From: an uncultured Christensenella sp.
GTDB lineage: Bacteria > Bacillota > Clostridia > Christensenellales > UBA3700
Length of the DNA stretch: 64,000 nucleotides
NCBI GenBank assembly: GCA_910584035.1
Contig: CAJTZR010000001.1
Location: 1,576-65,575 of the forward strand
Reading direction: 5' to 3'
Positions 956 to 46,116 of the stretch are shown here, piece after piece (the first letter of the stretch is position 1; each line of letters begins with the position of its first letter). The notes beneath the pieces are model-generated. The model did no database searches. It was not told the DNA's origin and saw only the letters and a program-made list of their open reading frames with translations. The position numbers and the translations under genes were made by a program.

Positions 956-989
956 GCAAGGTGACGAATTTTCGTCACCTTGCTGTTTT
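956..989 (+). terminator. Rho-independent terminator
   Basis: GCAAGGTGACGAA-TT-TTCGTCACCTTGC perfect 13-bp stem followed by TGTTTT. Confidence 0.7.
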
Positions 990-1288
990 AGCCATTTTTA
1001 CACTAAAAATATATTGAAATTACAATTTAATTAATAAGTTTTTAAGCGTTATTTAGTAGATTTTAGATTTTAAAAATAAGCTTAAAGTGTTTAATAAATT
1101 CTATTTAAAATACAAAATTAATGTAATATATTTATATCCAAACAACTCAAATGCAAAATGTTTTTTTAGAGCATATACTAAAAGATTACTTTTAAACTTG
1201 TTTGAATTTTATATTTTACAAATTAAAACAAGTAAGAAAAAAGATAATTTTATATTATACTTTTATTAAATTGCAAATTTATAGTGCT

Positions 1289-2584
1289 TTATTTTGCAAG
1301 CAATTCAATTGCTTTAACATAAATATCATACATTTTTTGCAAGTCGGTAACTTTTGCACGCTCATTTTTTTGGTGAATTGTAGATTCTTGATTTGGGAAA
1401 ATCGGACCAAAAGCCACTGCAGTAGGCAATGCTCTTGCATAAGTTCCACCACCAATAGTAATAGGTTGTAGCTTTTCACCAGTGACACTTTCATATGCTT
1501 CAAGTAAGCTTGTGCAAAGTGGGTGGTCGGGTGCTATATATAGTGGATTGTGGAAAAAGCCATATTCCACAGTGCCGTTTGAAAATGTTTTTGTTAGCTT
1601 TTCAAATAATTGCTCTCTTGTAATGCAAAGAGGGTGTCTTATATCTAAGCTGAAAGTAATACCCTCACTATCACTAGTGATTGTTCCAACATTTATTGTT
1701 AGTTTACCGCTTATTTTGTCCTCGCATTTAATGTTATAGCCACTGCCGTCAGTGTTGCAGATTATATCTGCTAAGTTTTTTGCATTTCTGTCGTAATTGC
1801 CAAATAGTCTTAAAATTTTCCAAAATGCATTGTCACCAATTTGAGGGGAACTGCCGTGTGCAGACTTGCCATAAGCAGTGATAGTGTTGCCGTCAATTAT
1901 GACATTTTTGTCTGTGTTTTGATAGCTTTGTAAAGTTTTTGCCATTTCGTTATTAACAACGCAAACAACTTTATCCATAACCATATTAGCTCTTTCACCA
2001 CCATTAATTGAAAGCAAATAAGATGGTTTTTTCATATGCACAGAAAAATATGCAACACCTTTTTCGCAGTTGATTACTGGAAAATCTCCGTCTGGAGTAA
2101 AGGCGATTGTAGGTATTTCCTCAAGTTCGCAATATTTATCTATGCAAAGCCAACCAGACTCCTCATCGCAACCAAAGATTATACGGATACGTTTATTTGG
2201 TACAAAACCATTGTCTACAAGTTGTTTTGTTGCAAATAGAGTAGCCATTATAGGACCTTTGTCATCAAGTACACCTCTGCCACAAAGATAACCATCAATT
2301 ATCTCGCCAGAAAGTGTAGGTATATCCCAATCATTGCCAAAAGGTACAGTGTCTAAGTGGCCTAAAATGCCAAGTAGCTCCTCCCCATTACCAATTTCCG
2401 CCCAGCCATAGTAGCCATTACCATAATATGTCTTAAAACCTAAGTTTTCTGCAATGCGTAATGCTTTCCTTAAGCAATCGTCTACGCCGATTCCGAATGG
2501 TTTGCCGTCAATACTTTTACTTTCCACACTATTTATTTTTATTAGCTCAGATGTAGCCTTTAAATACTCGTCAAAATAATTCAT
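1289..2584 (-). CDS. pepV: M20-family dipeptidase, PepV/Sapep-like
   Basis: 431 aa. M20 metal/catalytic motifs: GHLDTVP, GRGVLDDKGP, FGCDEESGW. The C-terminal IGGGTYAR...VAFGP block is typical of PepV. RBS AGAGGT lies upstream of the ATG. Confidence 0.75.
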   Translation of the reverse strand: MNYFDEYLKATSELIKINSVESKSIDGKPFGIGVDDCLRKALRIAENLGFKTYYGNGYYGWAEIGNGEELLGILGHLDTVPFGNDWDIPTLSGEIIDGYLCGRGVLDDKGPIMATLFATKQLVDNGFVPNKRIRIIFGCDEESGWLCIDKYCELEEIPTIAFTPDGDFPVINCEKGVAYFSVHMKKPSYLLSINGGERANMVMDKVVCVVNNEMAKTLQSYQNTDKNVIIDGNTITAYGKSAHGSSPQIGDNAFWKILRLFGNYDRNAKNLADIICNTDGSGYNIKCEDKISGKLTINVGTITSDSEGITFSLDIRHPLCITREQLFEKLTKTFSNGTVEYGFFHNPLYIAPDHPLCTSLLEAYESVTGEKLQPITIGGGTYARALPTAVAFGPIFPNQESTIHQKNERAKVTDLQKMYDIYVKAIELLAK

Positions 2585-2839
2585 AATTACCTCTAAAAAA
2601 TTAATATGTTTTGTTTAAATTAATAATAACAAACAAGTTATTTATTATAAGATTAGTTACAAAAAAACATAAAAATTTAAAATTAATTTCAATTTATTTA
2701 TAATATATATCATTATTATATACTAAATTTAAATAAATGAGAACTAATTTAAAACAAAATAATATAAAACATTGCAAAATTATATAAGTATGTGCTATAA
2801 TATGTAAGAGTAATCTTATTTTACTATTAGAGGTGAAAT

Positions 2840-3607
2840 ATGGCAATACACGATGGTCATAGAAATAGAATGCGACAACGTATAGAAAAGGACGGAATTG
2901 AGAGTTTGCAAGAACACGAGATTCTGGAATATTTGTTATATGCCGTTGTTCCCAGAAAAGATACGAACGAACTTGCACATAAAATAATTGAGATATGTGG
3001 CAACCTAAATGGCGTATTTGACCAATCAGTTGAAAGATTACAGAAAATAGAGGGTGTAACATACAATATGGCGATATTCTTGTCAAGTATGAGCGGTATT
3101 ATACGCAGGTATTTGTTACTTGAAGAAAGCGGAATCAATATTGCAAATGTTCAAGAATGCGTTAAAATTATGCGACCAATTTTTGAAACGCTTAAGTATG
3201 AGGAAATGCATATGTTATTAGGCAATTCAAAAGGAAGGTACTTAAAGCGAGTTTTGGTTTCAAAAGGTAGTGCAAGTGAAGTTCATTGTAATGTACGTGA
3301 TTTAGTTGATATTGCTTTAAGAAACAATGCTTCAAGAGTGGTAATTATACACAATCATCCGTCAAATCATCCACAACCTTCGTTTGCAGATGACTTGTTG
3401 ACAGAAAAGATATTTATGGCATTTAATATGATAGGTATAAAATTTCAAGACCATATAATTGTAACCAAAGATGGCTACTTTTCTTATTCAGAAAATGGTG
3501 TATTAACAGATATGAGTAATGGTTTAGTAACCTTTCAACAAGGCACAATAGGTCGATTGCAGTATGTGCCTACACCTAAACAGCAGTTAGATATGTCCGA
3601 TTATTAA
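2840..3607 (+). CDS. radC: RadC-like JAB/MPN-domain protein (UPF0758)
   Basis: 255 aa. The N-terminal HRNRMRQRIEKDG...LLEYLL and the JAB signature HNHPSNHPQPSFAD are typical of RadC. RBS GAGGTG. Confidence 0.75.
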   Translation: MAIHDGHRNRMRQRIEKDGIESLQEHEILEYLLYAVVPRKDTNELAHKIIEICGNLNGVFDQSVERLQKIEGVTYNMAIFLSSMSGIIRRYLLLEESGINIANVQECVKIMRPIFETLKYEEMHMLLGNSKGRYLKRVLVSKGSASEVHCNVRDLVDIALRNNASRVVIIHNHPSNHPQPSFADDLLTEKIFMAFNMIGIKFQDHIIVTKDGYFSYSENGVLTDMSNGLVTFQQGTIGRLQYVPTPKQQLDMSDY

Positions 3608-3659
3608 AAAATAAAGAATAGATAAAGATAGAATATTTGAGAATTTAAGGAGCGAGTAT

Positions 3660-5096
3660 ATGGAGATTAGAACAAGATTTGCACCAAGTCCTACTGGTTT
3701 TATGCACGTAGGAAATTTAAGGACTTGTTTATATGGTTATCTTTTTGCTAAAAAGAATAACGGCAAATTTATTTTAAGAATAGAGGACACTGACCAAGAA
3801 AGATATGTTGAGGGTGCGGTGGAAACAATATATAAAACATTACAAAAAGCGGGGATTGTTCACGATGAGGGACCAGATAAGGACGGCGGAGTTGGACCTT
3901 ATATCCAAAGTGAAAGAAAGGCAATTTACCTAGAGTATGCTAAAAAGTTGGTTGAATTAGGCGGTGCGTACTATTGTTTTTGCGATAAAGAGAGATTGGA
4001 TAGCCTTGCTGGCGAAAATGGTATAAAAAAATATGATAAACATTGCTTGAATTTATCTAAAGCTGAGGTGCAAGCAAAACTAGATAGTGGCGAGCCATAT
4101 GTAATAAGACAAAATATCCCTCAAGAGGGTGTATCTTCTTACATAGATATGGTTTTTGGTGAGATTAGCGTGCCAAATTGTGATATGGAAGACGGCATTT
4201 TGATTAAAAGTGATGGTATGCCTACATATAACTTTGCAAATGTTGTTGATGACCATCTAATGAAAATAAGTCACGTTATACGTGGTATGGAATATTTGTC
4301 AAGCACACCTAAGTATAACTTGATGTATGATGCTTTTGGTTGGGAAAGACCGCAATATATGCACTTGCCACCTATTATGAGAGATGCAACACATAAGCTT
4401 TCAAAAAGGCACGGCGATGCAAACTTTGAGGACTTTTTGGAAAAGGGTTATCTAGTACCTGCTATTGTAAACTACATAGCACTTTTGGGTTGGGCACCTA
4501 GTGATAATAGAGAAAAAATGTCAATGGCAGAGCTTATGGATGCCTTTGATGTTAAAGGAATTAGTAAGAGCGGCAGTATTTTGGACGAGGCAAAAATGAA
4601 ATGGTTAAATTCTCAATATATCAAGGAGTTGAGTGTTGAGAAATTTGTAGCACTTGCAAAACCATTCTTTGAGCAAAGTAAGGCTGCTGGCAAGTATGAT
4701 TATAATAAACTTGCGGTGCTATTAATTCCAAGACTGGAAATTTTGAGTGATATACCTAGCAAAATAGACTTTTTAGAGGAATTTGAGGGTTACGACTTAG
4801 AGCTTTACGAAAACAAAAAGAACAAAATGGACAAGCAGATTGCTATTGAAATTTTGGAAAAGAGTATTCCGTTATTTGAGGACACAAGCGATTTTAGTGA
4901 GGAAAACTTGCAAAACATTATTGCAAATATAATTGAGCAAGGCGGATATAAAAAGGGACAAGTATTTTTGACAATTAGGCTTGCTTTGACTGGGGCTCAA
5001 ATGACACCAGGCGGTGCGACTGAAATGGCGGACTTGTTAGGCAAGGCTGAAAGTATGCGTAGACTAAAATACAGTTTGAACTACTTAAAGGGGTGA
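3660..5096 (+). CDS. gltX: Glutamate--tRNA ligase
   Basis: 478 aa. RFAPSPTGFMHVGNLRT (HIGH-type motif) and KLSKRHG (KMSKS-type motif). RBS AAGGAG. Confidence 0.95.
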   Translation: MEIRTRFAPSPTGFMHVGNLRTCLYGYLFAKKNNGKFILRIEDTDQERYVEGAVETIYKTLQKAGIVHDEGPDKDGGVGPYIQSERKAIYLEYAKKLVELGGAYYCFCDKERLDSLAGENGIKKYDKHCLNLSKAEVQAKLDSGEPYVIRQNIPQEGVSSYIDMVFGEISVPNCDMEDGILIKSDGMPTYNFANVVDDHLMKISHVIRGMEYLSSTPKYNLMYDAFGWERPQYMHLPPIMRDATHKLSKRHGDANFEDFLEKGYLVPAIVNYIALLGWAPSDNREKMSMAELMDAFDVKGISKSGSILDEAKMKWLNSQYIKELSVEKFVALAKPFFEQSKAAGKYDYNKLAVLLIPRLEILSDIPSKIDFLEEFEGYDLELYENKKNKMDKQIAIEILEKSIPLFEDTSDFSEENLQNIIANIIEQGGYKKGQVFLTIRLALTGAQMTPGGATEMADLLGKAESMRRLKYSLNYLKG

Positions 5097-5098
5097 AT

Positions 5099-5500
5099 AT
5101 GAAAGGATATTTACCTATTACAAAACCATATCTTACTGAAAAGGAAATATTGGGACTTAATCCGTTGGTGCTTGCATTTGTAGGGGATAGCGTGCAACAG
5201 CTTATGGTGCGTACAAAACTTGCTTGCAATACTACCGCCAAAGCGGGGGAGTTGCATAAACTACAAGCCGAACAAATTAAGGCATCTGCACAAGCAAAGT
5301 ATATGGATGAGATAATGTCTATTTTGACAGAAGAAGAAATTGCCGTATTTAAGCGTGCAAGGAATAGTCATATGAACACCATAGCAAAAAATGCAACCAT
5401 TGCAGACTACAAAAAGGCGAGTGGCTTTGAGGCAGTAATTGGGTATCTTTATTTGCTTGGTAAAAACGAAAGATTGCAAGAGTTGTTTGAAAAAATTTAA
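5099..5500 (+). CDS. mrnC: Mini-ribonuclease III
   Basis: LAFVGDSV...ELHKLQ...NSHMNT...YKKASGFEAVIGYLYL are typical of Mini-III. I prefer the ATG at 5099 (AAAGGGG about 6 nt upstream) over the track's GTG at 5093. The position after gltX matches the Bacillus gene order. Confidence 0.8.
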   Translation: MKGYLPITKPYLTEKEILGLNPLVLAFVGDSVQQLMVRTKLACNTTAKAGELHKLQAEQIKASAQAKYMDEIMSILTEEEIAVFKRARNSHMNTIAKNATIADYKKASGFEAVIGYLYLLGKNERLQELFEKI

Positions 5501-34435: not shown

Positions 34436-36326
34436 AACCCTTCAAAAATCGGAACTAAAAGACAAAAAAACTAAAAATAAACAGCCAAATACCATTGCTT
34501 TGATATTTAAAACAATATTCAAAAAGTATAGTGCTTTATTTATTGCCGTAATATTAGGTATTATAGTTTCTGCAGTTGCATCTGTATTTGGTACAACATT
34601 TATTAATACTTTGTTAGGTCATATTGAGCCACTTATTGGACAACAAAATCCCGACTTTACAAATGTAATTAGAGCATTGCTTACAATGGCAGGTATTTAT
34701 GGTGCTGGTACACTATGTGCATTGCTTTACAACCAGTTTATGATTATCATTTCCCAAAATACTATGCGTTCAATAAGAAATGATATGTTCATTAAAATGC
34801 AAAAGTTACCAGTTAAGTATTTTGATAGAAAAAATAACGGCGATATAATGAGTTATTTTTCTAACGATACAGATACAATGATGCAACTATTGTCACAAGG
34901 TATACCACAACTAATCAACTTAATGACAACTTTAGCTGCGGTAATTGTTTCAATGTTTATCCTAAGTCCTATTTTGGCGGTTTGTACTATCGTATATGGT
35001 GTATTAATGTTATTTGTTGCACAATTTATTGGTAAAAGGTCGGTTAAATATTTTGCAGGACAACAAAAATCTATCAGTGAAGTAAACAGCTATGTTGAGG
35101 AAATGATTGGCGGTCAAAGAGTTGTAAAAGTATTCAACCACGAGGAAGTTTGTAAACAAGAGTTCGCTCAAATTAACGATAAATGGCGTGACGCAAGTTT
35201 TAGAGCTGTTAAGCTAGCTTGTACAATAATGCCGATTATGAGTGGTATGGGACATTTGCTTTATGTATTGATTGCATTGATTGGTGGTGCATTAGTAATA
35301 GCAAATGTGGCAGGAACAACTCTTGCTGCGGTAGTAACATTTATCCCACTTACTAGGTCATTTGCAATGCCTATTAACCAGTTTGCGGAACAAATCAATA
35401 ACTTTGCAATGGCAACTGCTGGTTCAAGACGTATTTTCCAACTATTGAGCGAGGAAGAAGAGGTTGACAATGGCTATGTTACACTTGTAAAAGTTTGTGA
35501 GGAAAATGGTGAACTTGTTGAGTGTGAGGATGGCGAGTGGGCTTGGAAACACCCTCACGGAGACGGAACTTTAACTTATGCAAAACTTGAGGGTAATGTA
35601 GAGTTAGACCACGTAGACTTTGGATATGTTGAGGATAAATTAGTTTTAAAGGACATTACAATAAATGCAAAATCTGGCGAAAAGATTGCTTTAGTAGGTT
35701 CAACTGGTGCTGGTAAAACAACAATTACAAACCTTATAAATAGATTTTACGATATTGATGACGGAAAAATTAGGTATGACGGAATCAATATAAACAAGAT
35801 TAAGAAAGAGGATTTGAGAAAGTCTTTGGGAATAGTTTTACAAGATGTAAACTTGTTTAGTGGTACTATTGCAGACAATATTCGTTACAGCAGACCAGAT
35901 GCAACTGACGAGGAAGTCGTAAATGCTTGCAAACGTGGTGGGGCACACGAGTTTATTGAAATGCTACCAGAAAAATACAATACTGTTATAGACGGCGATG
36001 GTTCATCACTATCTCAAGGACAAAGACAGCTATTATCTATCAGCCGTGCAATACTTGCGGATACTCCGCTTATGATTTTGGACGAGGCAACAAGTAGTAT
36101 TGATACACGTACAGAGTTACTTGTACAAAAGGGTATGGATAGCTTAATGCAAGGCAGAACTTGTTTTGTAATAGCACACAGACTTTCTACTATTCAAAAC
36201 TCTGACTGCATTATGGTTTTGGAACACGGCGAAATTATCGAGCGTGGCAACCACGATGAGTTAATTGCAAAAGGCGGTAGATATTACGAGCTTTACAATG
36301 GTAAAAAAGCGGAAATTACTGCATAA
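34422..36326 (+). CDS. ABC exporter, fused permease/ATPase (heterodimer subunit 2)
   Basis: 634 aa. Walker A GSTGAGKTT, LSQGQRQ, Walker B LMILDEATSSID. 14-nt overlap with subunit 1. Confidence 0.9.
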   Translation: MTKTKTLQKSELKDKKTKNKQPNTIALIFKTIFKKYSALFIAVILGIIVSAVASVFGTTFINTLLGHIEPLIGQQNPDFTNVIRALLTMAGIYGAGTLCALLYNQFMIIISQNTMRSIRNDMFIKMQKLPVKYFDRKNNGDIMSYFSNDTDTMMQLLSQGIPQLINLMTTLAAVIVSMFILSPILAVCTIVYGVLMLFVAQFIGKRSVKYFAGQQKSISEVNSYVEEMIGGQRVVKVFNHEEVCKQEFAQINDKWRDASFRAVKLACTIMPIMSGMGHLLYVLIALIGGALVIANVAGTTLAAVVTFIPLTRSFAMPINQFAEQINNFAMATAGSRRIFQLLSEEEEVDNGYVTLVKVCEENGELVECEDGEWAWKHPHGDGTLTYAKLEGNVELDHVDFGYVEDKLVLKDITINAKSGEKIALVGSTGAGKTTITNLINRFYDIDDGKIRYDGININKIKKEDLRKSLGIVLQDVNLFSGTIADNIRYSRPDATDEEVVNACKRGGAHEFIEMLPEKYNTVIDGDGSSLSQGQRQLLSISRAILADTPLMILDEATSSIDTRTELLVQKGMDSLMQGRTCFVIAHRLSTIQNSDCIMVLEHGEIIERGNHDELIAKGGRYYELYNGKKAEITA

Positions 36327-36362
36327 AGCATTTTAAAATACAATGTAATGACATAAAACAAC

Positions 36363-36391
36363 AAAAAAGGCGAGCTTTAAGCTTGCCTTTT
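36363..36391 (+). terminator. Rho-independent terminator of the marR-ABC operon
   Basis: AAAAAAGGCGAGC-TTTAA-GCTTGCCTTTT, a 7-bp stem with one G-U pair and a T-run. Confidence 0.65.
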
Positions 36392-36859
36392 AGTGTAAAA
36401 TAACAATGCGGTGGAAGAATTTTATGTTAATAATATTAGTTTTATCCACTATTATTAGTTTTAATGTCTTTATCGGCACTAGTAGTTTTACTATTTATAG
36501 CTTGTTCAACTTCTCTATCATTAGTTTTACTAGCAAAAATGTCTAATTCCTTATTTATGGAATAATCATTATTTTATAAAACAGCTATCTTTTAATTAAT
36601 TTGGATTAATAACAATATAGTTTAGACAAAGAACAATATAATGTATTTAAAAGTATTTAAAAAATTCCGCCCGCTTGGAGTACAAATAGTAATGTGTTTT
36701 TATTAATATTGATATAATTTAATCTCATTATAAATAATACTTGTTGTGGTAAAAAATATGGAAATCAAAGCAAAAATGCATAAAATATTGTATTTTTTGT
36801 AAAAGTGTAGTATAATAGGTAAAAATAATAAATAAAATTACAATCTATAGAGGTGTAAA

Positions 36860-37963
36860 ATGTTAATAGATAAAAGAATTGAAAAATTGGCACACGGCTT
36901 GGTTGACTTTTCTTGCGATGTGCAAAAAGGTGAAAATGTATTGATTGAGGCAACTGGCGTTGACTATCAACTTGTTGCAAGCCTTGTTAAAGAGGTGTAT
37001 GCAAAAGGTGCATATCCATTTGTAAACTTAACAGATTTGCGTATTAAACGTGAGTGGATGAAAGGTATGAGCGAGGAACTTGCAAAAAAATATGCGGATA
37101 TGGAAATGTATAGAATGAAAGATATGCAAGCATATATCGCAATACGTGGCGGTAGTAACAATCAAGAGCTATCTGATGTTGATTTGGCAATGTACAACAG
37201 AATTATGCGACCAGTGCTAAACCAAAGAGTTGACCATACAAAATGGGTTGTGCTTAGATATCCAACAGAGTCAATGAGTCAACAAGCTGGAATGAGTACT
37301 GAAGCTTTTGAGGACTTTTACTTTGACGTATGTACACTTGACTACAGCAAAATGGATAAGGCAATGACACCGCTTGTAGAACTTATGAATAAGACTGACA
37401 AAGTAAGGATAGTTGCAAAAGATACTGACTTAACATTTTCAATCAAAGGTATTCCAGCCATCAAATGTAGCGGTTTGAGGAATATTCCAGACGGCGAGGT
37501 TTATACTGCACCCGTAAAAGATAGTGTAAATGGTGTAATAACTTACAATGTTCCATCTGTGGAGGAGGGGATAAAGTTTGAAAATGTACGTTTGGAATTT
37601 AAAAATGGTAAAATTGTAAAAGCAACAGCGAACAACACTGAAGCAATTAACAAGATTTTTGATACAGACGAGGGAGCAAGGTTCGTTGGCGAGTTTGCAC
37701 TTGGCGTAAATCCATATATTACCAAGGCTATGGGAGATATTCTATTTGACGAGAAAATTAGTGGTTCAATTCATTTTACCCCAGGTCAAAGCTATGAAGA
37801 TGCACCAAACGGCAATAAATCTGCTATCCATTGGGACTTGGTACAAGTTCAAACAGCAGAGTATGGCGGTGGTGAGATATATTTTGATGATGTATTGATT
37901 AGAAAAGACGGCTTATTTGTGCTTGACGAATTAAAATGCCTAAACCCAGAAAATTTAAAATAA
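36860..37963 (+). CDS. M29-family aminopeptidase (AmpS/PepS-like)
   Basis: 367 aa. KLAHGLVDFSCDVQKGENVLIEA, NIPDGEVYTAP and GEFALGVNP...HFTPG are typical of the thermophilic-metalloprotease M29 family. Confidence 0.8.
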   Translation: MLIDKRIEKLAHGLVDFSCDVQKGENVLIEATGVDYQLVASLVKEVYAKGAYPFVNLTDLRIKREWMKGMSEELAKKYADMEMYRMKDMQAYIAIRGGSNNQELSDVDLAMYNRIMRPVLNQRVDHTKWVVLRYPTESMSQQAGMSTEAFEDFYFDVCTLDYSKMDKAMTPLVELMNKTDKVRIVAKDTDLTFSIKGIPAIKCSGLRNIPDGEVYTAPVKDSVNGVITYNVPSVEEGIKFENVRLEFKNGKIVKATANNTEAINKIFDTDEGARFVGEFALGVNPYITKAMGDILFDEKISGSIHFTPGQSYEDAPNGNKSAIHWDLVQVQTAEYGGGEIYFDDVLIRKDGLFVLDELKCLNPENLK

Positions 37964-38176: not shown

Positions 38177-38276
38177 AACTTCCGTTATCGGAAGTTTTAT
38201 GAAAAAATATTGCCCAAAATTTCCGATATCGGAAATTATTACACAATATCACTTGACAAATTTCCGATAACGGAAT
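38177..38276 (+). promoter_or_regulatory. Three phased TTCCG-N4-CGGAA palindromes (operator array) upstream of the HTH-Fic gene
   Basis: AACTTCCGTTATCGGAAGTT at 38177-38196; AATTTCCGATATCGGAAATT at 38218-38237 (perfect 20-mer); TTCCGATAACGGAA at 38262-38275. Centres are exactly 41 bp apart. Confidence 0.75.
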
Positions 38277-38281
38277 AAAAT
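38253..38281 (+). promoter_or_regulatory. Fic promoter TTGACA-17-TAAAAT
   Basis: TTGACA at 38253-38258 and TAAAAT at 38276-38281. The third palindrome occupies the spacer. Confidence 0.6.
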
Positions 38282-38338
38282 ATATATACAACAAGTTTAA
38301 TTTAAAAAGTTTTTGTTTAAATTAATGAGAGGTGTTTA

Positions 38339-39229
38339 GTGGAATTTTTATCAGTTGCGGAAATTGCGAAAAAGTGGAATATTTCAGATAGAATGGTAAG
38401 GAATTATTGTGCCAGTGGTAGGATAGCGGGAGCATTTTTGACGGGCAAAACTTGGAATATCCCAGCCAATGCACAAAAGCCACTAAATGTAAAAGAGGAA
38501 AGTTGCGGTAATGATTTGTTAGCAATTTTAAAGCGAGAAAAAGATACGTCTTTAACTGGTGGTATATATCACAAAACGCAAATAGAATTAACATATAATT
38601 CCAACCATATTGAGGGTAGTACTTTAACTCACGACCAAACTAGATATATTTTTGAAACTTGTACTATAGGTGTTGAAAGTGGCAGTGCTTTGAATGTTGA
38701 CGATATTATTGAAACATCAAATCATTTTAAATGTGTTGATTACATTATTGATAATGCCACTAAGTCAATAAGCGAAGCAATGATAAAAAAATTGCATTTT
38801 ATTTTAAAAAACGGCACAAGCGATAGCCGAAAAAGTTGGTTTAATGTAGGCGAGTATAAAAAGTTGCCTAATGAGGTGGGGTTTGAGGAAACTTGTAAAC
38901 CCGAAAAAGTTAAGACTGAAATAAAAAAACTTTTGGATAGCTACAATGCCATACAAGATAAAACTTTTGAGCAAATTTTGCAGTTCCATAAAGATTTTGA
39001 GAGTATACACCCTTTTCAAGACGGCAATGGTAGAGTAGGCAGATTGATAATGTTTAAGGAATGTCTTGCTAATAACATTGTTCCTTTTATAATTGACGAA
39101 TATCATAAACTATTTTATTATCGTGGCTTAAAAGAATGGAAAACAGAAAAAGGTTACCTAATTGACACTTGCTTATCTTGTCAAGATAAATACAAGTCGT
39201 GGCTTGATTATTTTCAAATCAAGTATTAA
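38339..39229 (+). CDS. Fic-family (AMPylase-type) protein with an N-terminal MerR/excisionase-like HTH
   Basis: GTG start after GAGAGGTG. LSVAEIAKKWNISDRMVRNYC is an HTH. HPFQDGNGRVGR matches HxFx(D/E)GNGRxxR. SNHIEG matches the inhibitory [ST]xxxE[GN] motif N-terminal to the core. Confidence 0.85.
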   Translation: MEFLSVAEIAKKWNISDRMVRNYCASGRIAGAFLTGKTWNIPANAQKPLNVKEESCGNDLLAILKREKDTSLTGGIYHKTQIELTYNSNHIEGSTLTHDQTRYIFETCTIGVESGSALNVDDIIETSNHFKCVDYIIDNATKSISEAMIKKLHFILKNGTSDSRKSWFNVGEYKKLPNEVGFEETCKPEKVKTEIKKLLDSYNAIQDKTFEQILQFHKDFESIHPFQDGNGRVGRLIMFKECLANNIVPFIIDEYHKLFYYRGLKEWKTEKGYLIDTCLSCQDKYKSWLDYFQIKY

Positions 39230-39399
39230 TTTAGGTTTTAATTATATTTAATTAGTATCTTTAAATAGTTAGTTTAATTTTTTTAGTAAATATACTTTAA
39301 AATTGTTATAAAAGACTAGACAAATTGACTAATTTTTGGTAAAATAAATACAAACAATAATAAATTGTGCCTATTATAGGCAATTTGGAGGATAAATAA

Positions 39400-40428
39400 A
39401 TGGCAAAAGCTAATAAAACAGTAAAAGTTGCTATTAACGGCTTCGGTCGTATTGGTCGTCTTGCATTCAGACAAATGTTCGGTGCAGAAGGTTTTGAGGT
39501 TGTTGCAATCAACGATTTGACAAGCCCTAAAATGCTTGCTCACCTTTTGAAGTATGACTCTTCTCAAGGTAGATATGCTTTGGCTGACACTGTTTCAGCA
39601 ACTGAGGATTCTATCATTGTTGATGGTAAAGAGATTAAAATTTACGCTATGGCTAACGCTGCAGAGCTTCCTTGGGGTAAAATCGGTGTAGACGTTGTAC
39701 TTGAGTGTACTGGTTTCTATACTTCTAAAGCAAAAGCACAAGCTCACATTGATGCAGGTGCTAAGAAAGTTGTTATTTCTGCTCCAGCTGGTAACGACCT
39801 TCCAACTATCGTTTACAATGTTAACCACGACAAAATGACAGCTGATGACCATATCATTTCTGCTGCATCTTGTACTACTAACTGCCTAGCTCCTATGGCT
39901 AAAGCTTTAAATGATAACTGGGCTGTTCAATCTGGTATTATGAGCACTATTCACGCTTATACTGGTGACCAAATGACTTTGGACGGACCTCAAAGAAAGG
40001 GTGACCTTCGCCGTTCAAGAGCTGCTGCTGTAAATATCGTTCCTAACTCAACTGGTGCTGCTAAAGCTATCGGTTTGGTTATCCCAGAGCTAAATGGTAA
40101 ACTTATCGGTTCTGCTCAAAGAGTTCCAACTCCAACTGGTTCAACTACTATCTTGGTTGCTGTTGTTAAAGGTACTCCTACTAAAGAGCAAATCAATGCT
40201 GCTATGAAAGCTCAATCTAACGAGTCATTCGGTTATACTGAGGACGAAATCGTTTCAAGTGACGTTATCGGTATGAGATTTGGTAGCTTGTTTGATGCTA
40301 CTCAAACAATGGTTATGGATATGGGTAATGGTTACTCTCAAGTACAAGTTGTTTCTTGGTATGATAATGAGAACTCATATACAAGCCAAATGGTAAGAAC
40401 AATTAAGCACTTCGCTAAATTCTTCTAA
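39400..40428 (+). CDS. gap: Type I glyceraldehyde-3-phosphate dehydrogenase
   Basis: 342 aa. INGFGRIGR, active-site SCTTNCLAP and WYDNE. RBS GGAGGA. Confidence 0.95.
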
Positions 40429-40484
40429 GATACCATTTAAACAATCTAACTAAAAAGATTTATTTTAAACAATATGTAATTAAG

Positions 40485-40512
40485 CAAAAAAGCGGGCATC
40501 GCCCGCTTTTTG
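40485..40512. terminator. gap terminator
   Basis: AAAAAAGCGGGC-ATC-GCCCGCTTTTTG: a GC-rich stem with flanking A and T runs. Confidence 0.8.
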
Positions 40513-40732
40513 TTTGCTTTAATTAATTTAAATAGTGTATAGATATATAATTTATAATTTATAAATAAAAAGTTATAAAAATATAATAGTTTCCTTTTTT
40601 CGCTTATTTATTTAATTTTATTTATCATAAAAAGCTGATAGAAAATTATTAAAATATTTAAAAGAGTAAAAAATTAATTGTAATCAATTTTTTAAACCAT
40701 TAATTTTTAATTACATTTTAAATATTTTACAA

Positions 40733-40791
40733 TGCGTTTCATTTACGGAACGCATTTTTATTTTTCAAGTATTATAATTCGATGTGTCGAA
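40733..40791 (+). promoter_or_regulatory. Control region of HTH-A: GCGTT-N10-AACGC inverted repeat, TATAAT, TTCGA-N4-TCGAA palindrome
   Basis: TGCGTTTCATTTACGGAACGCA at 40733-40754; TATAAT at 40773-40778; TTCGATGTGTCGAA at 40778-40791. The same layout recurs upstream of HTH-C. Confidence 0.6.
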
Positions 40792-40817
40792 CATAAGTTT
40801 TGACTTAGGAGGATAAT

Positions 40818-41054
40818 ATGATAAAATTTAATGAAGCAGTTGCTCAAAGAACAAAGGAATTATTGAATGAGATAGGGAAAAAACCTTATTATCTCTATAA
40901 AGAAGGTGGTATACCACGTTCAACTATATCAAATGTTTTAAATTGTAATATAAATAAAGTAAGTGGTGAATTAATTTATCAAATTAGTAGTGTGTTGCAA
41001 ATTAAATTAAAAGATTTTTATGATTCACCTCTGTTTGATGAGATTAGTAATTAA
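40818..41054 (+). CDS. Small XRE-type HTH protein (paralogue A)
   Basis: 78 aa. LYKEGGIPRSTISNVLNC...LIYQISSVLQIKLKDFY fits an HTH_3-like helix-turn-helix. RBS AGGAGGA. Confidence 0.7.
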   Translation: MIKFNEAVAQRTKELLNEIGKKPYYLYKEGGIPRSTISNVLNCNINKVSGELIYQISSVLQIKLKDFYDSPLFDEISN

Positions 41055-41056
41055 AA

Positions 41057-41094
41057 CAAAATAGCACTTTCAAATTTTTGAAAGTGCTATTTTG
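41057..41094. terminator. Bidirectional terminator shared by HTH-A (+) and the SLOG gene (-)
   Basis: CAAAATAGCACTTTCAAA-TT-TTTGAAAGTGCTATTTTG, a perfect 18-bp inverted repeat. Confidence 0.7.
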
Positions 41095-41149
41095 TATGAT
41101 ATCAAGCAAACAATAGAATTATAAGAGATAAGAATACAAAATAACTATA

Positions 41150-41620
41150 TTATTCAAATAAATTTATAATTTGTTTCCCCATTTTTTCTGCATATTTTAC
41201 AGCTATTCTTGTGCCACCAAAAGAGATTCTGTTGTCATAATAACAAATTAGGGTGTCACAGCTATCAATCATTCTTTTATTGCTTTCAATAATTTTTTGT
41301 TTATAATGACACATTTCAATTTCGTACATTACAGTTTCTACGTCAGAATAAGGACGATAAACATCTTTACCAAAAATAACATCATAAGATATTTGGGGTT
41401 TTATTTGATTAAGGCTTGTTATAACAACCTCAATTCTAATTTTATGACCTTGTTGTCTTAATTCTCTGCACGCAGATAATGCAAATTCGTCAAAATTCCC
41501 ATAAGTTCCCATTGTAAAATAATTACAACCTAATTCAATTTCATTCTTTATAGCATTATACAACTTATCCGTTATTCGGTAAGCATCTCTATGTCCTATA
41601 AAAGCAACTTTTTTACTCAT
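41150..41620 (-). CDS. YpsA/DUF1273-like SLOG-superfamily protein
   Basis: 156 aa. VAFIGHRD...LGCNYFTMGTYGNFDEFALSA...IRIEVVI and the C-terminal NKRMIDSCDTLICYYDNRISFGGTRIAVKYAEKMGK follow the DUF1273 pattern as I recall it (TGHRP...G.lGvD...; rn.fmvd.sD.ll.vyD...gG). RBS AGAGGTG. Confidence 0.55.
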   Translation of the reverse strand: MSKKVAFIGHRDAYRITDKLYNAIKNEIELGCNYFTMGTYGNFDEFALSACRELRQQGHKIRIEVVITSLNQIKPQISYDVIFGKDVYRPYSDVETVMYEIEMCHYKQKIIESNKRMIDSCDTLICYYDNRISFGGTRIAVKYAEKMGKQIINLFE

Positions 41621-41634
41621 ATCGCACCTCTAAA

Positions 41635-41650
41635 GTTCCGTATACCGAAC
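41635..41650. promoter_or_regulatory. Palindrome GTTCCGTATACCGAAC just upstream of the SLOG RBS
   Basis: 7 of 8 arm positions are complementary. It lies in the 152-bp divergent control region between the SLOG gene and HTH-C. Confidence 0.45.
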
Positions 41651-41688
41651 GTTTTTTAAATTTTATCACGTTTTCAAGTTTTTGTAAA

Positions 41689-41746
41689 GCGTTTTGTATG
41701 TGGAACGCAATTTTTTATATAAAGTATTACAATTCGATATATCGAA
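41689..41746 (+). promoter_or_regulatory. Control region of HTH-C: GCGTT-N10-AACGC, TACAAT, perfect TTCGATATATCGAA palindrome
   Basis: GCGTTTTGTATGTGGAACGC at 41689-41708; TACAAT at 41728-41733; TTCGATATATCGAA at 41733-41746. Confidence 0.6.
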
Positions 41747-41772
41747 CATAATAATTGTATTAGGAGGACAAT

Positions 41773-42009
41773 ATGATTAAATTAAATGAGGCTATTGCAA
41801 AAAGAACAAGCGAGTTATTGAATGAGATAGGACAAAAGCCTTATTATCTCTTTAAAAAGGGTGGGGTGCCACGTTCAACAATATCCAACCTTTTGAGTTG
41901 TCAAATTAAAAATGTTAGTAGTGGTTTATTATATCAAATTTGTAGTACTTTAGACATAAAATTAAAAGACTTTTTTGACTCACCATTATTTGACGAAATT
42001 AGCGATTAA
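41773..42009 (+). CDS. Small XRE-type HTH protein (paralogue C)
   Basis: 78 aa. 57 of 78 residues are identical to paralogue A with no gaps (my hand alignment). RBS AGGAGGA. Confidence 0.7.
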   Translation: MIKLNEAIAKRTSELLNEIGQKPYYLFKKGGVPRSTISNLLSCQIKNVSSGLLYQICSTLDIKLKDFFDSPLFDEISD

Positions 42010-42012
42010 TGT

Positions 42013-42046
42013 AATTCTCCTTAACAAGTTTTTGCTAAGGAGAATT
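42013..42046 (+). terminator. Terminator of HTH-C
   Basis: AATTCTCCTTA-(12 nt)-TAAGGAGAATT 11-bp stem followed by AATTTTG. Confidence 0.6.
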
Positions 42047-42230
42047 AATTTTGTTACACTAATTATTTATAGATTAAAATTTTTATAAATTAAATATAAT
42101 AATTATAAAGTAAATTGCAGAACATTTTTTCGCCCATATAATAAGCTTTATTTTTACTTTCGCTAAACTTTTCTAAGAACTTCTAATATTATTTTTTGAG
42201 TTTTTGATAACATTCCTAAAAAGGGTTTTG

Positions 42231-42259
42231 TTGACATTTTATTAATTATAAGATATAAT
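42231..42259 (+). promoter_or_regulatory. Consensus promoter TTGACA-17-TATAAT for the 440-aa/hydrolase operon
   Basis: TTGACA at 42231-42236 and TATAAT at 42254-42259, 22 nt before the ATG at 42281. Confidence 0.65.
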
Positions 42260-42280
42260 ATAATTATAAGGAATTTACAT

Positions 42281-43603
42281 ATGACAAATTTAGGTGTGCA
42301 ACAATTACATATTATACCATTTGATTTAGGGTGTGTTTTTTATGATTGTTTAAGTATTAACAATTCAAAAAATTTAGATTTTGCAAAACATTTTATTGAT
42401 AAATTAACAAATGATTCTAAAGCATACAATTTTACAATTGAGAATAATATAGTATTAAAATACACGGGTAAAGAAATAACGGATATTGAATATAAAAAAT
42501 GCAAATTGGCAGAGACTGCAATTTGTATTGCTAATTTAATGCCAAATTTAAAATGTTATATTTTAGCTAATGGTATTGGTATTTTTGTATTAGCTGATTT
42601 AGAGGGAAAGGCGTTATTAAAAACTGATGAATCAATTAAAGATTATAGTAAAGCGATATTGGCTAATTATCAAAAAAAAGTAACTCAAGCAAGTATTTTA
42701 AAGAGGTTTAATGGTGAAGAGATACTTTCAGAAGAAAATAAAGCTATGTTAACTTTTCGTGAACTATGTTGGAATATTGTAAATGAGAGAAGCATTAAAA
42801 GAAAAAGTGTCAATGTAAGAAAATATTCTGGTTCAAGTAGTTATAAAGCTAATGGCTTGTCGTATGTGCTTAGTATTTATCTATTAAAAGAGAATGAATT
42901 AACAAAGAATGAACTTAATCACCTTATGCGTTCTACTATATTTAACAAAGTTGTTGATAAGAATGAGTGGGCAAAAATAAATGAAACAATTTATAATTTA
43001 GAGTGTGAGGATAATGTTACTACATTAAAAATTGGTGATACTAATACATATTATTCGTGGTCTGCAGTTGCCGTTGAGGTAAAACAAGATATTGACAATT
43101 TTGATGAGATTTCTAAAAATTCTGTTTTATCGGCTATGATTAAATCGGAATTATATGTTCAATCAAGATGGTTTATTGCAGACAATTCTATGGATAATGT
43201 TAATAAAAATTCACATTGTAGCTTAGAGGGGTTGCAAAGACTGGCAAGCTTTGTTGAATTTTCACAAGCAGAGTTGGAAAACGATATTAGTGCAAATATG
43301 AATTCGCTTTATAAAAAAGTGTTAAATCAAGTTGTAATAACTTCTGAAGTAAGGCAATTATACAAATCGGTTGCAAATCAAATTAATACGCAAAAAAAGA
43401 TTAAAGAAGCTCACTATCAAGATAAAAAAAGAAAAAATAAATTGATAGCTGACTTGTTTTTGGCAGTATTCTCTGCGTCCACATTATACAAAACAGTTAT
43501 GGACCTTATAAGTGGTAAATTTGATTGGTATAATTGGTTGATTTTTGCAGCAATGTTGGTTATTGCAGTGGGAACAATAATTTTTAATTATAAAAATAAA
43601 TAG
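42281..43603 (+). CDS. Uncharacterised 440-aa protein: soluble N-terminal region, K/Q/E-rich helical segment, two hydrophobic helices at the extreme C-terminus
   Basis: Long ORF with its own consensus promoter. C-terminal LIADLFLAVFSASTLYKTVMDLI and WYNWLIFAAMLVIAVGTIIF are TM-like. I recognise no catalytic or family motif. Confidence 0.8.
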   Translation: MTNLGVQQLHIIPFDLGCVFYDCLSINNSKNLDFAKHFIDKLTNDSKAYNFTIENNIVLKYTGKEITDIEYKKCKLAETAICIANLMPNLKCYILANGIGIFVLADLEGKALLKTDESIKDYSKAILANYQKKVTQASILKRFNGEEILSEENKAMLTFRELCWNIVNERSIKRKSVNVRKYSGSSSYKANGLSYVLSIYLLKENELTKNELNHLMRSTIFNKVVDKNEWAKINETIYNLECEDNVTTLKIGDTNTYYSWSAVAVEVKQDIDNFDEISKNSVLSAMIKSELYVQSRWFIADNSMDNVNKNSHCSLEGLQRLASFVEFSQAELENDISANMNSLYKKVLNQVVITSEVRQLYKSVANQINTQKKIKEAHYQDKKRKNKLIADLFLAVFSASTLYKTVMDLISGKFDWYNWLIFAAMLVIAVGTIIFNYKNK

Positions 43604-43610
43604 GTGTTTT

Positions 43611-44165
43611 ATGAAAAATATTTTAATAGTTGTTGATGTGCAAAATGGGTTTAATCGTTATGAACAAACACATATTTTAGTTGATAAAATTGCAAAGTTA
43701 ACAAATAGTGGTTTATTTGACAAGATAATAGCAACAAGATTTAGAAATAAAGAGGGTAGTCAGTACACAAAATTTCTAAATTGGCATAGGCTTATAGATG
43801 ATAATGATATTGAATTGGTAAAAGGCATTAAAGCGGATTTAGTTGTTGATAAGTGGATATACACTTGTATTAATGAGCAATTTATTTCTTTATTAAAACA
43901 AGTTAATGACAACGAATTACCAACACACATTTTTATCTGCGGTGCAGATACTGATTGTTGTGTTTTAAAAATAGCGACAGATATTTTTGAGCAAGGTATA
44001 ATGCCTATCGTATTAAGTGAATATTGCGATTCTAATGCTGGACCATTGTCTCACGAGGCAGGTTTATTAGTTATGAAAAGACTTATTGGAAAAAATAGTA
44101 TAGTTTCTAATGTCATTGCTAGTAAAGAGGATATTCAAAACATTATAAAAGAAAGACAATATTAA
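43611..44165 (+). CDS. Isochorismatase-family cysteine hydrolase (nicotinamidase-like fold; substrate unknown)
   Basis: 184 aa. ILIVVDVQNGF and ICGADTDCCV are the hallmark Asp and Cys motifs of the family. It starts 7 nt after the preceding stop, with RBS TAGGTG. Confidence 0.75.
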   Translation: MKNILIVVDVQNGFNRYEQTHILVDKIAKLTNSGLFDKIIATRFRNKEGSQYTKFLNWHRLIDDNDIELVKGIKADLVVDKWIYTCINEQFISLLKQVNDNELPTHIFICGADTDCCVLKIATDIFEQGIMPIVLSEYCDSNAGPLSHEAGLLVMKRLIGKNSIVSNVIASKEDIQNIIKERQY

Positions 44166-44181
44166 TCTAGTTATTGCATTG

Positions 44182-44212
44182 CCACCCTAGTTATAAATAG
44201 GGTGGTTTTATA
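44182..44212 (+). terminator. Terminator ending the island operon
   Basis: CCACCCTA-GTTATAAA-TAGGGTGG followed by TTTTATATTTT. Confidence 0.7.
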
Positions 44213-44266
44213 TTTTAACAATTATACAAAGAAATGTATAAAAGGTGAGTAAATTTGTGGTATTTA

Positions 44267-44299
44267 TGCAAAAATTATTCAAAAATGCATAAATATACA
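44267..44299 (+). promoter_or_regulatory. Candidate ARG-box-like palindromes upstream of argG
   Basis: TGCAAAAATTATTCA at 44267-44281 and TGCATAAATATACA at 44286-44299. The second fits TGnAT-W4-ATnCA, the shape of the E. coli ARG box core TGAAT-W4-ATTCA. Confidence 0.3.
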
Positions 44300-44337
44300 T
44301 AAATTTATATTATTTTTGATAATTTATGCAAAATCAG

Positions 44338-44366
44338 TTGACAAAATTGCATATTGTTTGTATAAT
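44338..44366 (+). promoter_or_regulatory. argG promoter TTGACA-17-TATAAT
   Basis: TTGACA at 44338-44343 and TATAAT at 44361-44366. Confidence 0.65.
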
Positions 44367-44399
44367 AAGGTAAAAATATTCATTATGAGGTGATTTTTT

Positions 44400-45626
44400 A
44401 TGGATAAGAAAGATATTAAAAAAGTTGTTTTAGCATATTCAGGTGGTTTAGATACTTCTATTATAATTCCTTGGCTTAAGGAAAACTACAATAACTGCGA
44501 GGTTATCGCTGTTTCTGGTAACGTTGGACAAGCTGACGAGCTTGAGGGACTAGAGGAAAAGGCTTTAAAAACTGGTGCATCTAAACTATATGTTGAAGAT
44601 TTGACTGACGAGTTTGTTGAGGACTACATTATTCCTACAGTTAAAGCTGGTGCTTTGTATGAGGAGTATATGTTGGGTACATCTTTTGCACGTCCAATCA
44701 TTGCAAAGAGAATTGTTGAAATCGCATTAAAAGAAGGTGCTGACGCTATTTGTCACGGCTGTACTGGTAAGGGTAACGACCAAGTAAGGTTTGAGCTTAC
44801 TATTAAAGCATTTGCACCAGATATGCACATTATTGCACCTTGGAGAGAGTGGTCAATCAAGAGCCGTGAGGAGGAAATTGACTATGCAGAAAAACACAAT
44901 GTTCCATTAAAAATCAATCGTGAAACTAACTATAGTAAAGATAAGAACTTATGGCATTTGTCACACGAGGGTTTGGACTTGGAAGATGCTGGCAATGAGC
45001 CACTTTATGATAAAGAGGGCTTTTTGGAAATGGGCGTATCACCATTTAAAGCACCAGATAAGCCAACATACATAACAATGGACTTTGAGCAAGGTGTTCC
45101 AGTTAAGTTGAATGATAAGAAAATGAGTCCAAAGGAAATCGTTTTGGCACTAAATAAGTTTGGTGGTGAAAATGGTATTGGTCTATTGGATATTGTTGAA
45201 AATCGTTTAGTTGGTATGAAATGCCGTGGCGTTTATGAAACTCCAGGTGGTGCAATTTTATACTTTGCTCATAAGTATTTGGAAAGCTTGTGTTTAGATA
45301 AATATACAGCTCACAAAAAACAAGAACTTGCAGTTACTTTTGCAGATTTAGTTTACAATGGTCAATGGTTCACACCATTAAGAGAGGCTCTTTCAGCTTT
45401 TGTTGACAAAACTCAAGAAAGGGTTACTGGTAAAGTAAAACTTAAATTATACAAAGGTAACATTATTAAAGCAGGTGCTTGGAGTGATTACTCATTGTAT
45501 TCAGAGGAAATTGCTACTTTTGGTGAGGATAATGTTTACAATCAAGCTGATGCAACTGGCTTTATTAACTTGTTTGGTTTGCCAATCAAAGTACAAGCAC
45601 AAGTTAATGCTAAAAATAAAAAATAA
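44400..45626 (+). CDS. argG: Argininosuccinate synthase
   Basis: 408 aa. [12 protein letters not shown]-binding motif and [13 protein letters not shown]. Confidence 0.95.
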
Positions 45627-46116
45627 TAATTAACAATTGAAAAAAAGATTTTGTAATTATTGAAAGTATATATTAAGTGCTGTCAATAGATAGTAGTTTT
45701 TTAATTCAAATTGTTTGACTTAATATTTTGGCTAAAATTGATAATATTTGATAATTTAAGTTGGCTAAAATTTAACAATTTTAATTACTATTTGAAATAG
45801 TATCAAAGTGATTTTGCAGTAATTTGAATTATATTTGCAAGGTCAGTATAATATTTAAAACTTTGTTTAATGGTTTTTCATTGTATTAATGTTGAAATGA
45901 TTGGGGGTTAAACATATTTAAATGATTACTTACACTTTAAATTGTTAATTAATGTAAGCAGTTGCAAGAGTAAAAAATTATAGTAAAGTTACAAAATCGC
46001 AAAATATAAATAACAAATATTTAGGCAAGTGTTTTTTAAAAAGCTTTCGAAAATCGGGGGCAAATAAAAAGCATTTGCTTAAAGCACTATAAAAAGCTTT
46101 AGTAAAAAGGTGTAAT

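Follow-up and report, generated by a model that had tools for sequence, protein, structure and literature searches.

The question raised by the stretch of DNA analysed here, a window of 64,000 nucleotides from an uncultured Christensenella sp. (contig CAJTZR010000001.1 of assembly GCA_910584035.1), is whether the AT-rich block of five genes between the core genes gap and argG represents one system, and which of its genes would act together. The block encodes, in this order, a helix-turn-helix (HTH) protein of the XRE type (HTH-A), a SLOG-like protein, a second XRE-type HTH protein (HTH-C), a membrane protein of 440 amino acids (aa) with a predicted CorA-like fold, and an isochorismatase-fold cysteine hydrolase. 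The first-pass annotation of the window had described the block as an accessory island and, possibly, as a conflict locus to which all five genes contribute. The comparison of strains and lineages showed that the apparent five-gene system is pieced together from two or more unrelated modules in a recombination hotspot, in which the last two genes constitute the conserved cargo; this pair is a solid candidate for a new anti-phage system, not a demonstrated one.

Three alleles of the gap-argG junction were observed within one species when 21 contigs encoding exactly the Gap protein of the window were read, which bears out the view of the block as accessory DNA between core genes and shows that it is not invariant. 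Allele A, present in the window and in the loci L001, L002 and L078, carries HTH-A, the SLOG gene and HTH-C, followed by the pair of 440-aa and hydrolase genes; the most frequent one, allele B (L027, L074-76), carries a single HTH gene, whose product is 56% identical to both HTH-A and HTH-C, followed by the pair; and allele C (L077 and 3 similar contigs) carries an HTH gene of the allele-B type followed by a type II restriction-modification (R-M) system. The R-M system of allele C occupies L077 9280-11651 and consists of a C5 DNA methylase (PADLOC MTase_II, 1.4e-120) and a convergent restriction endonuclease (REase_II, 2.4e-46). The Christensenella of the window is a mouse-gut bacterium, and the metagenome-assembled genome (MAG) MGBC104832 in GTDB encodes Gap and ArgG proteins that are 100% and 99% identical, respectively, to those of the window.

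The HTH-A and SLOG genes are not a constant part of this arrangement, their segment missing in roughly 15 of the 21 contigs with an identical Gap protein, a tally that combines the places displayed with the counts of similar places not displayed. In the alignment with allele B, positions 38218-40531 of the window correspond to L027 7035-9351 and positions 41697-45636 to L027 9422-13368, and homology with the allele-B strains stops at 40531. Two diverged direct repeats with 76% identity lie on either flank of the inserted segment (40706-41005 and 41661-41960); their units are HTH-A with its upstream region and HTH-C with its upstream region, and this suggests that the SLOG segment entered via recombination at the HTH gene. 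HTH-A and SLOG are an unrelated insertion restricted to some strains. The opposite side of the block was delimited by comparing allele C with allele B, in which L077 and L074 share 97.8% identity as far as the stop of the HTH gene and 99.5% again from L077 11794, corresponding to L074 11724 and to position 44222 of the window, so that the right breakpoint lies 57 nt past the hydrolase stop; between the breakpoints stand 2.2 kb with the pair or 2.27 kb with the R-M system. Since the flanks are near-identical up to both breakpoints, the pair cassette has been exchanged precisely for the R-M system. The HTH proteins of L074 and L077 are identical at 75 of 78 residues, and because the same HTH allele precedes the pair in one strain and the R-M system in another, the HTH gene belongs to the frame of the hotspot and is not pair-specific. 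The HTH gene directly 5′ of the cassette may encode a controller-type regulator. Its role as a specific gate of the pair, as had been envisaged, is doubtful, with 56%-identical HTH alleles standing before an identical promoter region and one of these alleles also standing before the R-M system. The gap-argG junction is thus a recombination hotspot with interchangeable cargo, and the two-gene cassette is its conserved cargo.

The two genes of the cassette were found to travel together. An exact look-up of the 440-aa sequence of the window returned nothing, and the 99%-identical protein P0001 was used as its proxy. A hydrolase gene of one and the same subfamily lies directly 3′ of the CorA-like gene at every full-length locus with downstream sequence, which covers L001-L035, contexts at 72, 63, 51 and 40% identity, nine GTDB MAGs and one viral contig, and the same was observed in metagenome contigs (27 of the 27 informative ones). 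The distance between both genes is 1-12 nt where the genes were called, except in the loci around P0203, where it is ~125 nt. A remote subfamily of CorA-like proteins (~390-420 aa, 20-28% identity) is also paired, in L020, L021, L080 and Fusobacterium vincentii SB055, the remote hydrolases being recognised by hhalign with probabilities of 98.8 (L021) and 100 (L080). The identities of the two proteins co-vary (Spearman 0.85, n = 35), indicating that the CorA-like protein and the hydrolase are inherited together. The co-occurrence across genomes that the first-pass annotation had proposed to test was observed for the 440-aa gene with the hydrolase gene and not with the SLOG gene, as the ~60 further loci with a 440-aa gene, outside this species, had neither HTH-A/HTH-C nor SLOG.

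The pair occurs in Clostridia, Bacilli and Fusobacterium, with ~100 homologue clusters of the 440-aa protein in public metagenomes, 135 representative clusters among 1.84 billion proteins in an exhaustive profile search, and carriage by 9 of 185,579 GTDB species representatives. The cultured carrier, F. vincentii SB055 (L079, NZ_CP084075.1), harbors the genes of a 395-aa CorA-like protein and a 180-aa hydrolase between recR and pyrR. PLSDB lists this replicon (2.1 Mb, circular) as the plasmid 'pSB055A'; it carries accA/D, pfk, recR, pyrR/B/C and carA and is therefore evidently the chromosome. Decayed copies were also observed: in L018 the CorA-like gene is truncated before the transmembrane (TM) helices and followed by a hydrolase fragment, and L062 retains a frameshifted N-terminal remnant, as is expected of costly accessory genes. 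The loci L060-L062 were considered as a domain-shuffled variant with the N-terminal domain fused to another effector, and this was rejected, the open reading frame (ORF) being a truncated, frameshifted remnant. In L035 (11310-12418), one CorA-like gene is followed by two tandem hydrolase paralogues, which are 51% and 39% identical to the enzyme of the window.

The 440-aa protein exhibited no match in Pfam, NCBIfam, PADLOC or PHROGs, in agreement with its earlier description as an orphan. Assignment to a sequence family was attempted with a profile search of the PDB and with the exhaustive profile search of 1.84 billion representatives, which returned only its own small family and no housekeeping family; the family profile found no PDB sequence at E<=10. 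Pfam CorA (PF01544) matched neither the protein of the window (E<=0.1) nor 10 distant members (E<=0.05), among which one weak DUF6547 match was seen. The AlphaFold2 (AF2) model of the monomer, built on a 47-sequence alignment (pLDDT 86.6, pTM 0.82), displays an N-terminal cytoplasmic alpha/beta domain, very long stalk helices (residues 281-400) and two C-terminal hydrophobic helices, TM1 (388-410) and TM2 (416-435), separated by a 5-residue loop and preceded by a basic patch (382-387). In the Foldseek search of the PDB with this model, CorA, ZntB or CmaX made up 17 of the 19 top matches, with alignments of ~200-330 columns and probabilities that reach 1.0 over ~310 columns, and the best viral fold match (BFVD) is a phage 'Mg2+ transporter'. 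On the strength of the model, the protein is predicted to be a CorA-fold membrane protein. TM1 bears a conserved polar face, FxA(S/T)SLYKT, behind the basic patch, and the invariant polar residues of the family fall into three clusters, the N-terminal motif HIIPFDLG, the loop YKxxGLSYVL and the helix VQSRWFxADNSMDNVNK, which would be compatible with a ligand or ion site.

The hydrolase matches PF00857 with 59.5 bits (cut-off 27). Among 31 family members D9, K81, C116 and C117 are invariant, with Asp9-Lys81-Cys117 as the triad, and further private invariant residues are R16, Y52, W58, Y84, N99, Y138, C139, S141 and N142. A single-sequence search of the PDB gave no match for the hydrolase, and the profile search of the PDB gave the nicotinamidase 2wt9 (E 4e-5, Cys motif only) and 3eef, related to N-carbamoylsarcosine amidase (E 2e-4). 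No His is invariant in the 31-member alignment, the segment equivalent to the metal-binding one reading ATRFxN, and the Asp/His/His metal site of nicotinamidases is consequently missing; the link to nicotinamidase and NAD salvage that had been drawn from the fold was rejected for this reason. The enzyme is predicted to be an active cysteine amidohydrolase or esterase.

The neighbourhoods of the pair point to a mobile life. In the viral contig L036 (IMG/VR) and in the MAG L031, the pair lies between the genes of the terminase TerL and a ParB-N6 methylase, ahead of the portal, prohead protease and capsid genes; it was detected in only 1 of the 2.9 million IMG/VR contigs, and the CorA-like protein had no match among INPHARED phages. 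Large serine recombinases were observed near the pair in at least 7 loci, and in L020 the pair resides in an integrase-bearing island. Defence genes accompany it in some genomes, such as Cas9 and a LlaJI-type R-M system in L005; GmrSD and RNase III in L008; and a TNT toxin with a SUKH_5 immunity gene in the island of L021, where the gene at 3324-4592, directly 5′ of the distant CorA-like/hydrolase pair, encodes a 422-aa protein that weakly matches Card1_endonuc. Type III CRISPR genes, cas10 included, were absent from the Pfam-annotated neighbourhoods of the pair, in which Cas9 of L005 was the only CRISPR gene. Across lineages, the pair sits between unrelated core genes, gap/argG among them, and elsewhere it forms bare two-gene islets at such sites (proS, valS, jag, trkA and recR/pyrR). 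The R-M swap, together with the phage, recombinase and defence neighbours, carries the signature of mobile conflict cargo, by guilt by association. In the region 876-5234 of the viral contig, 5′ of the terminase, a 624-aa protein is encoded that joins a SAM synthetase to a ~250-aa N-terminal region without assignment; the same contig has genes for an Amidoligase_2 enzyme and for a GGACT/AIG2-like cyclotransferase, and its TerL is apparently split in two ORFs. These genes may represent a metabolite or DNA/protein modification module.

The earlier view of the locus as one of conflict or defence is plausible for the pair, and it did not hold for the five genes as a single system. The pair may represent a ligand-gated suicide channel that is held in check by the hydrolase and aborts infection, a reading to which we give an even chance or slightly less. 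In this scheme, a strong constitutive promoter would drive both genes, and the CorA-fold protein would form an oligomeric, CorA-like pore in the inner membrane and bind a small molecule through its large cytoplasmic domain; the cytosolic Asp-Lys-Cys hydrolase would cleave an amide or ester bond in that molecule, keeping the pore shut in healthy cells. Upon phage infection or entry of a mobile element the ligand would rise or the hydrolase be lost, so that the pore would open, the membrane would depolarise and the infected cell or the replication of the invader would be aborted. The fuller proposal, put forward more tentatively and with a chance well short of even, is a stand-alone anti-phage system with a CorA-fold suicide channel and no dedicated signal synthase, in which the level of an amide or ester metabolite, endogenous or phage-made, would be set by the hydrolase.

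Several observations weigh against the suicide-channel reading. The Foldseek matches to CorA and its relatives have modest E values (from 1e-3) and low global TM scores (0.2-0.3), which, together with the missing Pfam CorA match, confines the CorA relationship to fold and architecture. The GMN motif (or G-V/I-N) is absent from the outer end of TM1; the loop between TM1 and TM2 has the consensus 'G(E/S)-FSW', and G[MVIL]N occurs in the last 70 residues of just 1 of the 47 family members. No sensor or signal-generating enzyme is linked to the pair, and none of the five block proteins had a match at E<=0.1 in PADLOC-DB v2.0.0, where only a Fic protein encoded upstream of the block was matched. 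If the channel is toxic, its expression from a perfect constitutive promoter would call for tight post-translational control. Some neighbours are ordinary, redox or detoxification genes, such as aldo-keto reductases, LysR regulators and bile-salt hydrolase, and in the 71-72% clade (L005 and L034) a Flavodoxin_2 gene runs 4 nt into the 5′ end of the CorA-like gene.

These last neighbours are equally those expected if the pair served accessory transport or stress metabolism, with a channel for a cation or small amide, a hydrolase that processes the substrate in salvage, detoxification or antibiotic inactivation, and a KefF-like Flavodoxin_2 protein that helps in some lineages. Aldo-keto reductases and LysR regulators recur near the pair together with Flavodoxin_4 proteins, an iron-dependent alcohol dehydrogenase (Fe-ADH) and bile-salt hydrolase; isochorismatase-fold enzymes are mostly catabolic amidases; and the blank PADLOC result would also fit. 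This role is nevertheless judged unlikely, though deserving of weight, as the R-M system swaps in at identical breakpoints, the pair occurs inside a phage morphogenesis region and beside serine recombinases and defence genes, its distribution is extremely rare and patchy across phyla, the ion-selectivity motif GMN is absent, and no substrate-specific regulator or pathway genes are co-conserved. The obligate, tightly spaced and possibly translationally coupled pairing, the carriage on recombinase-bearing elements and prophages, the loss of integrity of both genes in the decayed copies and the toxicity of CRISPR-associated CorA without its partner enzyme (PMC10600005) could instead indicate an addiction module of toxin-antitoxin type, in which the membrane toxin and the hydrolase, as an enzymatic or binding antidote, would stabilise mobile elements or islets with no dedicated anti-phage role. 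A small chance is left to it: both proteins are large for a toxin-antitoxin pair, the fully conserved catalytic site of the hydrolase indicates substrate turnover and not mere binding, and many copies sit in chromosomal islets, where there is no mobile element for them to maintain.

The phage-borne copies allow the pair to be read as counter-defence or lysogenic-conversion cargo, the hydrolase destroying a host immune signal or defence metabolite and the membrane protein acting in superinfection exclusion or late-lysis timing. Its position next to an anti-restriction-type ParB-methylase in the phage L036 and the prophage L031 is in keeping with such cargo, as is the phage 'Mg2+ transporter' among the fold matches; it is very unlikely in view of the scarcity of the pair in IMG/VR and INPHARED, the chromosomal location of most copies outside prophages and under their own promoter, and the R-M swap, which points to a host-side role. 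A system of all five genes, with SLOG as a nucleotide sensor, the twin HTH proteins as the gate on expression and the products of the pair as effectors, is hardly credible and has been largely refuted by the comparative data. The five genes are indeed adjacent in the window, L001, L002 and L078, and SLOG domains occur in conflict systems, with ShosA as the second-best fold match of the SLOG protein; against this, most conspecific strains keep the pair without HTH-A and SLOG, all pair loci outside the species lack them, the SLOG gene lies on the opposite strand with a separate promoter and terminator, and a SLOG homologue pairs with a different HTH protein elsewhere.

The features of the block are collected in the table below. 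The five ORFs, the AT-richness, the terminators and the two perfect promoters that had been described were all recovered at the same positions, the 440-aa and hydrolase genes constitute a single operon, equipped with a promoter and a terminator, as had been proposed, and the domain calls for HTH, SLOG and isochorismatase proved correct (Pfam HTH_26 and PF00857; SLOG through homologues and fold).

Table. Features of the gap-argG junction and its flanks; positions refer to the 64,000-nucleotide window.
Feature	Position	Strand	Details
gap, left flank	39400-40428		
gap intrinsic terminator, left edge of the variable region	40487-40511	+	11-bp stem with 6 GC pairs, then a T run
Strain-variable insertion with HTH-A and SLOG genes	40532-41696		1165 bp; ~70 bp in its place in L027
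HTH-A, XRE/Cro-C1-type HTH, 78 aa	40818-41054	+	ORF call; HTH_26 22.5 bits, cut-off 22
Bidirectional terminator hairpin between the convergent HTH-A and SLOG genes	41056-41095		19-nt arms, 100% complementary
SLOG-like protein (YpsA/YoqJ-like), 156 aa	41150-41620	-	ORF call, homologues, AF2 fold
HTH-C, XRE-type HTH, 78 aa	41773-42009	+	ORF call; HTH_26 27.6 bits, cut-off 22
Exchangeable cassette (hairpin, promoter, CorA-like gene, hydrolase gene, terminator)	42010-44221	+	L077/L074 comparison
Hairpin after HTH-C	42014-42045		10-bp stem, read directly from the sequence
Pair promoter, sigma-70-type	42231-42259	+	TTGACA-17-TATAAT, 12/12 consensus
Predicted CorA-fold membrane protein, 440 aa	42281-43603	+	ORF call; AF2/Foldseek
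Isochorismatase-fold cysteine hydrolase, 184 aa	43611-44165	+	ORF call; PF00857 E 5.6e-16
Pair terminator	44181-44206	+	9-bp stem with 5 GC pairs, T run
Second consensus promoter, upstream of argG	44338-44366		TTGACA-17-TATAAT, 12/12 consensus
argG, right flank	44400-45626		

The GC content of the block (0.262) is below that of gap (0.402), of argG (0.363) and of the window as a whole (0.321), and terminator-like sites are more frequent than in shuffled sequence (7 observed, 1.1 expected). The hydrolase gene starts 7 nt past the stop of the 440-aa gene, HTH-A and HTH-C are paralogues identical at 57 of 78 residues, and the SLOG gene and HTH-C are separated by 152 nt. A 9-bp direct repeat, AATTATAAG, stands on either side of the -10 box of the pair promoter (42244-42252 and 42262-42270), and the core promoter and this repeat are the same in alleles A and B despite the low identity of their HTH proteins; the repeat could be an operator, or a chance occurrence in AT-rich DNA. 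No integrase or transposase was seen among the Pfam-annotated neighbours within 8 kb on either side of the block, as the first-pass annotation had also noted. Upstream of the block, a further low-GC trough (0.256) was observed at 36250-37000, and the gene just 5′ of gap (38339-39229, + strand) encodes a protein of 296 aa that combines a Fic domain with an excisionase-like HTH at its N terminus; this is the Fic protein matched in PADLOC, by the candidate family PDC-S04 (E 2e-112) and by SoFic (4e-20), and it was found in all strains examined, with 94-98% identity in the two loci measured. In a related species (L005 1-17303, Gap 83.5% identical), the region 3′ of gap is likewise a variable island, in which gap is followed by DUF2695, a dienelactone-hydrolase-like gene, a Flavodoxin_2 gene, the pair, the LlaJI-type R-M system and a chloramphenicol acetyltransferase gene, and the Cas9 gene of this locus lies 5′ of gap.

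The SLOG protein of the window scores 17.6 bits against PF06908, below the cut-off of 27.7, and 26 of its 34 homologues (47-60% identity) match this family; one homologue carries the label 'phage-like protein YoqJ'. Neither a single-sequence nor a profile search of the PDB returned anything useful, and a fold search was needed: the AF2 model (pLDDT 91) has YpsA of B. subtilis (2nx2; TM score 0.72, E 8e-7) as its top PDB match, followed by ShosA (8zva, TM score 0.65) and then DprA. In L037 (4546-5498), a 58%-identical SLOG homologue is divergent from its own 101-aa HTH_3 gene between ligD and pyk, with an intergenic region of 149 nt that is close in length to that of the window, which suggests that HTH-SLOG is a recurrent two-gene module. 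The scans of IMG/VR retrieved no member of the SLOG subfamily and no relative of HTH-C.

In full-text literature searches that covered isochorismatases, nicotinamidases, CorA and CorA-like proteins in phage defence, no account of such a pair turned up. If the pair is a defence system, it would represent a new combination of effector and enzyme in bacterial immunity and a minimal two-gene version of the logic of CRISPR CorA-NrN. The combination of CorA with a degradative enzyme, familiar from type III CRISPR, would then also occur as an immune module in its own right, and the question of why such channels depend on an enzyme could be addressed in a simpler model. The substrate of the hydrolase could reveal a new infection-associated metabolite. 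The gap-argG junction of gut Christensenella offers a clean natural experiment, with the same flanks and either the pair or an R-M system as cargo, and the cultured F. vincentii SB055 makes the idea directly testable.

Compared with known systems, the 156-aa SLOG protein resembles YpsA/YoqJ and ShosA of ShosTA in fold, most of its homologues matching PF06908, and differs from them in being shorter and divergent with a sub-threshold Pfam score of its own; unlike ShosTA, it is paired with a small XRE-type HTH protein and not with a phosphoribosyltransferase (PRTase) of the ShosT type, and it is linked to the CorA-like pair solely in a subset of strains. Membership in the conflict systems that combine SLOG with a 2TM (SLATT-type) effector, which the first-pass annotation had invoked, would call for co-conservation of SLOG and the membrane gene, whereas alleles B and C and the other pair loci lack SLOG and the membrane protein here is a 440-aa protein of predicted CorA fold, not a small 2TM protein. 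The HTH protein encoded 5′ of the cassette shares with R-M controller (C) proteins the small XRE-type form of ~78 aa and, in allele C, the position directly 5′ of a type II R-M system; it differs in that this HTH allele stands before the CorA-like pair as well, and C-box operators were not identified. The hydrolase resembles PncA, N-carbamoylsarcosine amidase, YcaC and RutB in its PF00857 match, its Asp-Lys-Cys triad and the canonical isochorismatase motifs VDxQNGF, DK and GxDTDCCV, and departs from them as a distinct subfamily of ~180-184 aa with private invariant residues and no invariant metal-site His. The 440-aa protein is similar to CorA, ZntB and CmaX (MIT superfamily) in predicted fold and topology, with an alpha/beta domain, stalk helices and two C-terminal TM helices, and also in the very short external loop between the latter and the basic residues at the membrane interface; it differs in lacking GMN (GVN/GIN) and a PF01544 match, in being ~90-120 residues longer than the matched CorA chains (314-350 residues), and in belonging to a tiny family that is found on mobile elements and always paired with a hydrolase.

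The nearest known systems are the CorA effectors of type III CRISPR, which are membrane proteins with a CorA-type transmembrane part that bind SAM-AMP (Chi et al. 2023, PMC10600005). They are 'obligately associated with degradative enzymes', namely NrN, DEDD or SAM-AMP lyase; CorA is toxic without NrN, and immunity needs both, the reason for which the degradative enzyme is required being an acknowledged open question (PMC10600005). The pair differs from CRISPR CorA-NrN in its sequence family, in having no linked cas10 or other signal synthase, and in its partner, which is an isochorismatase-fold cysteine hydrolase and not a phosphodiesterase or lyase. In both, the membrane protein joins a large N-terminal domain in the cytoplasm to a C-terminal TM part of the CorA type, and where CRISPR CorA has an enzyme that degrades a small molecule encoded alongside it, the pair has an adjacent hydrolase of a different fold at every informative locus. 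The logic of CorA-NrN, a ligand-gated membrane effector with an off-switch enzyme, would also fit the pair.

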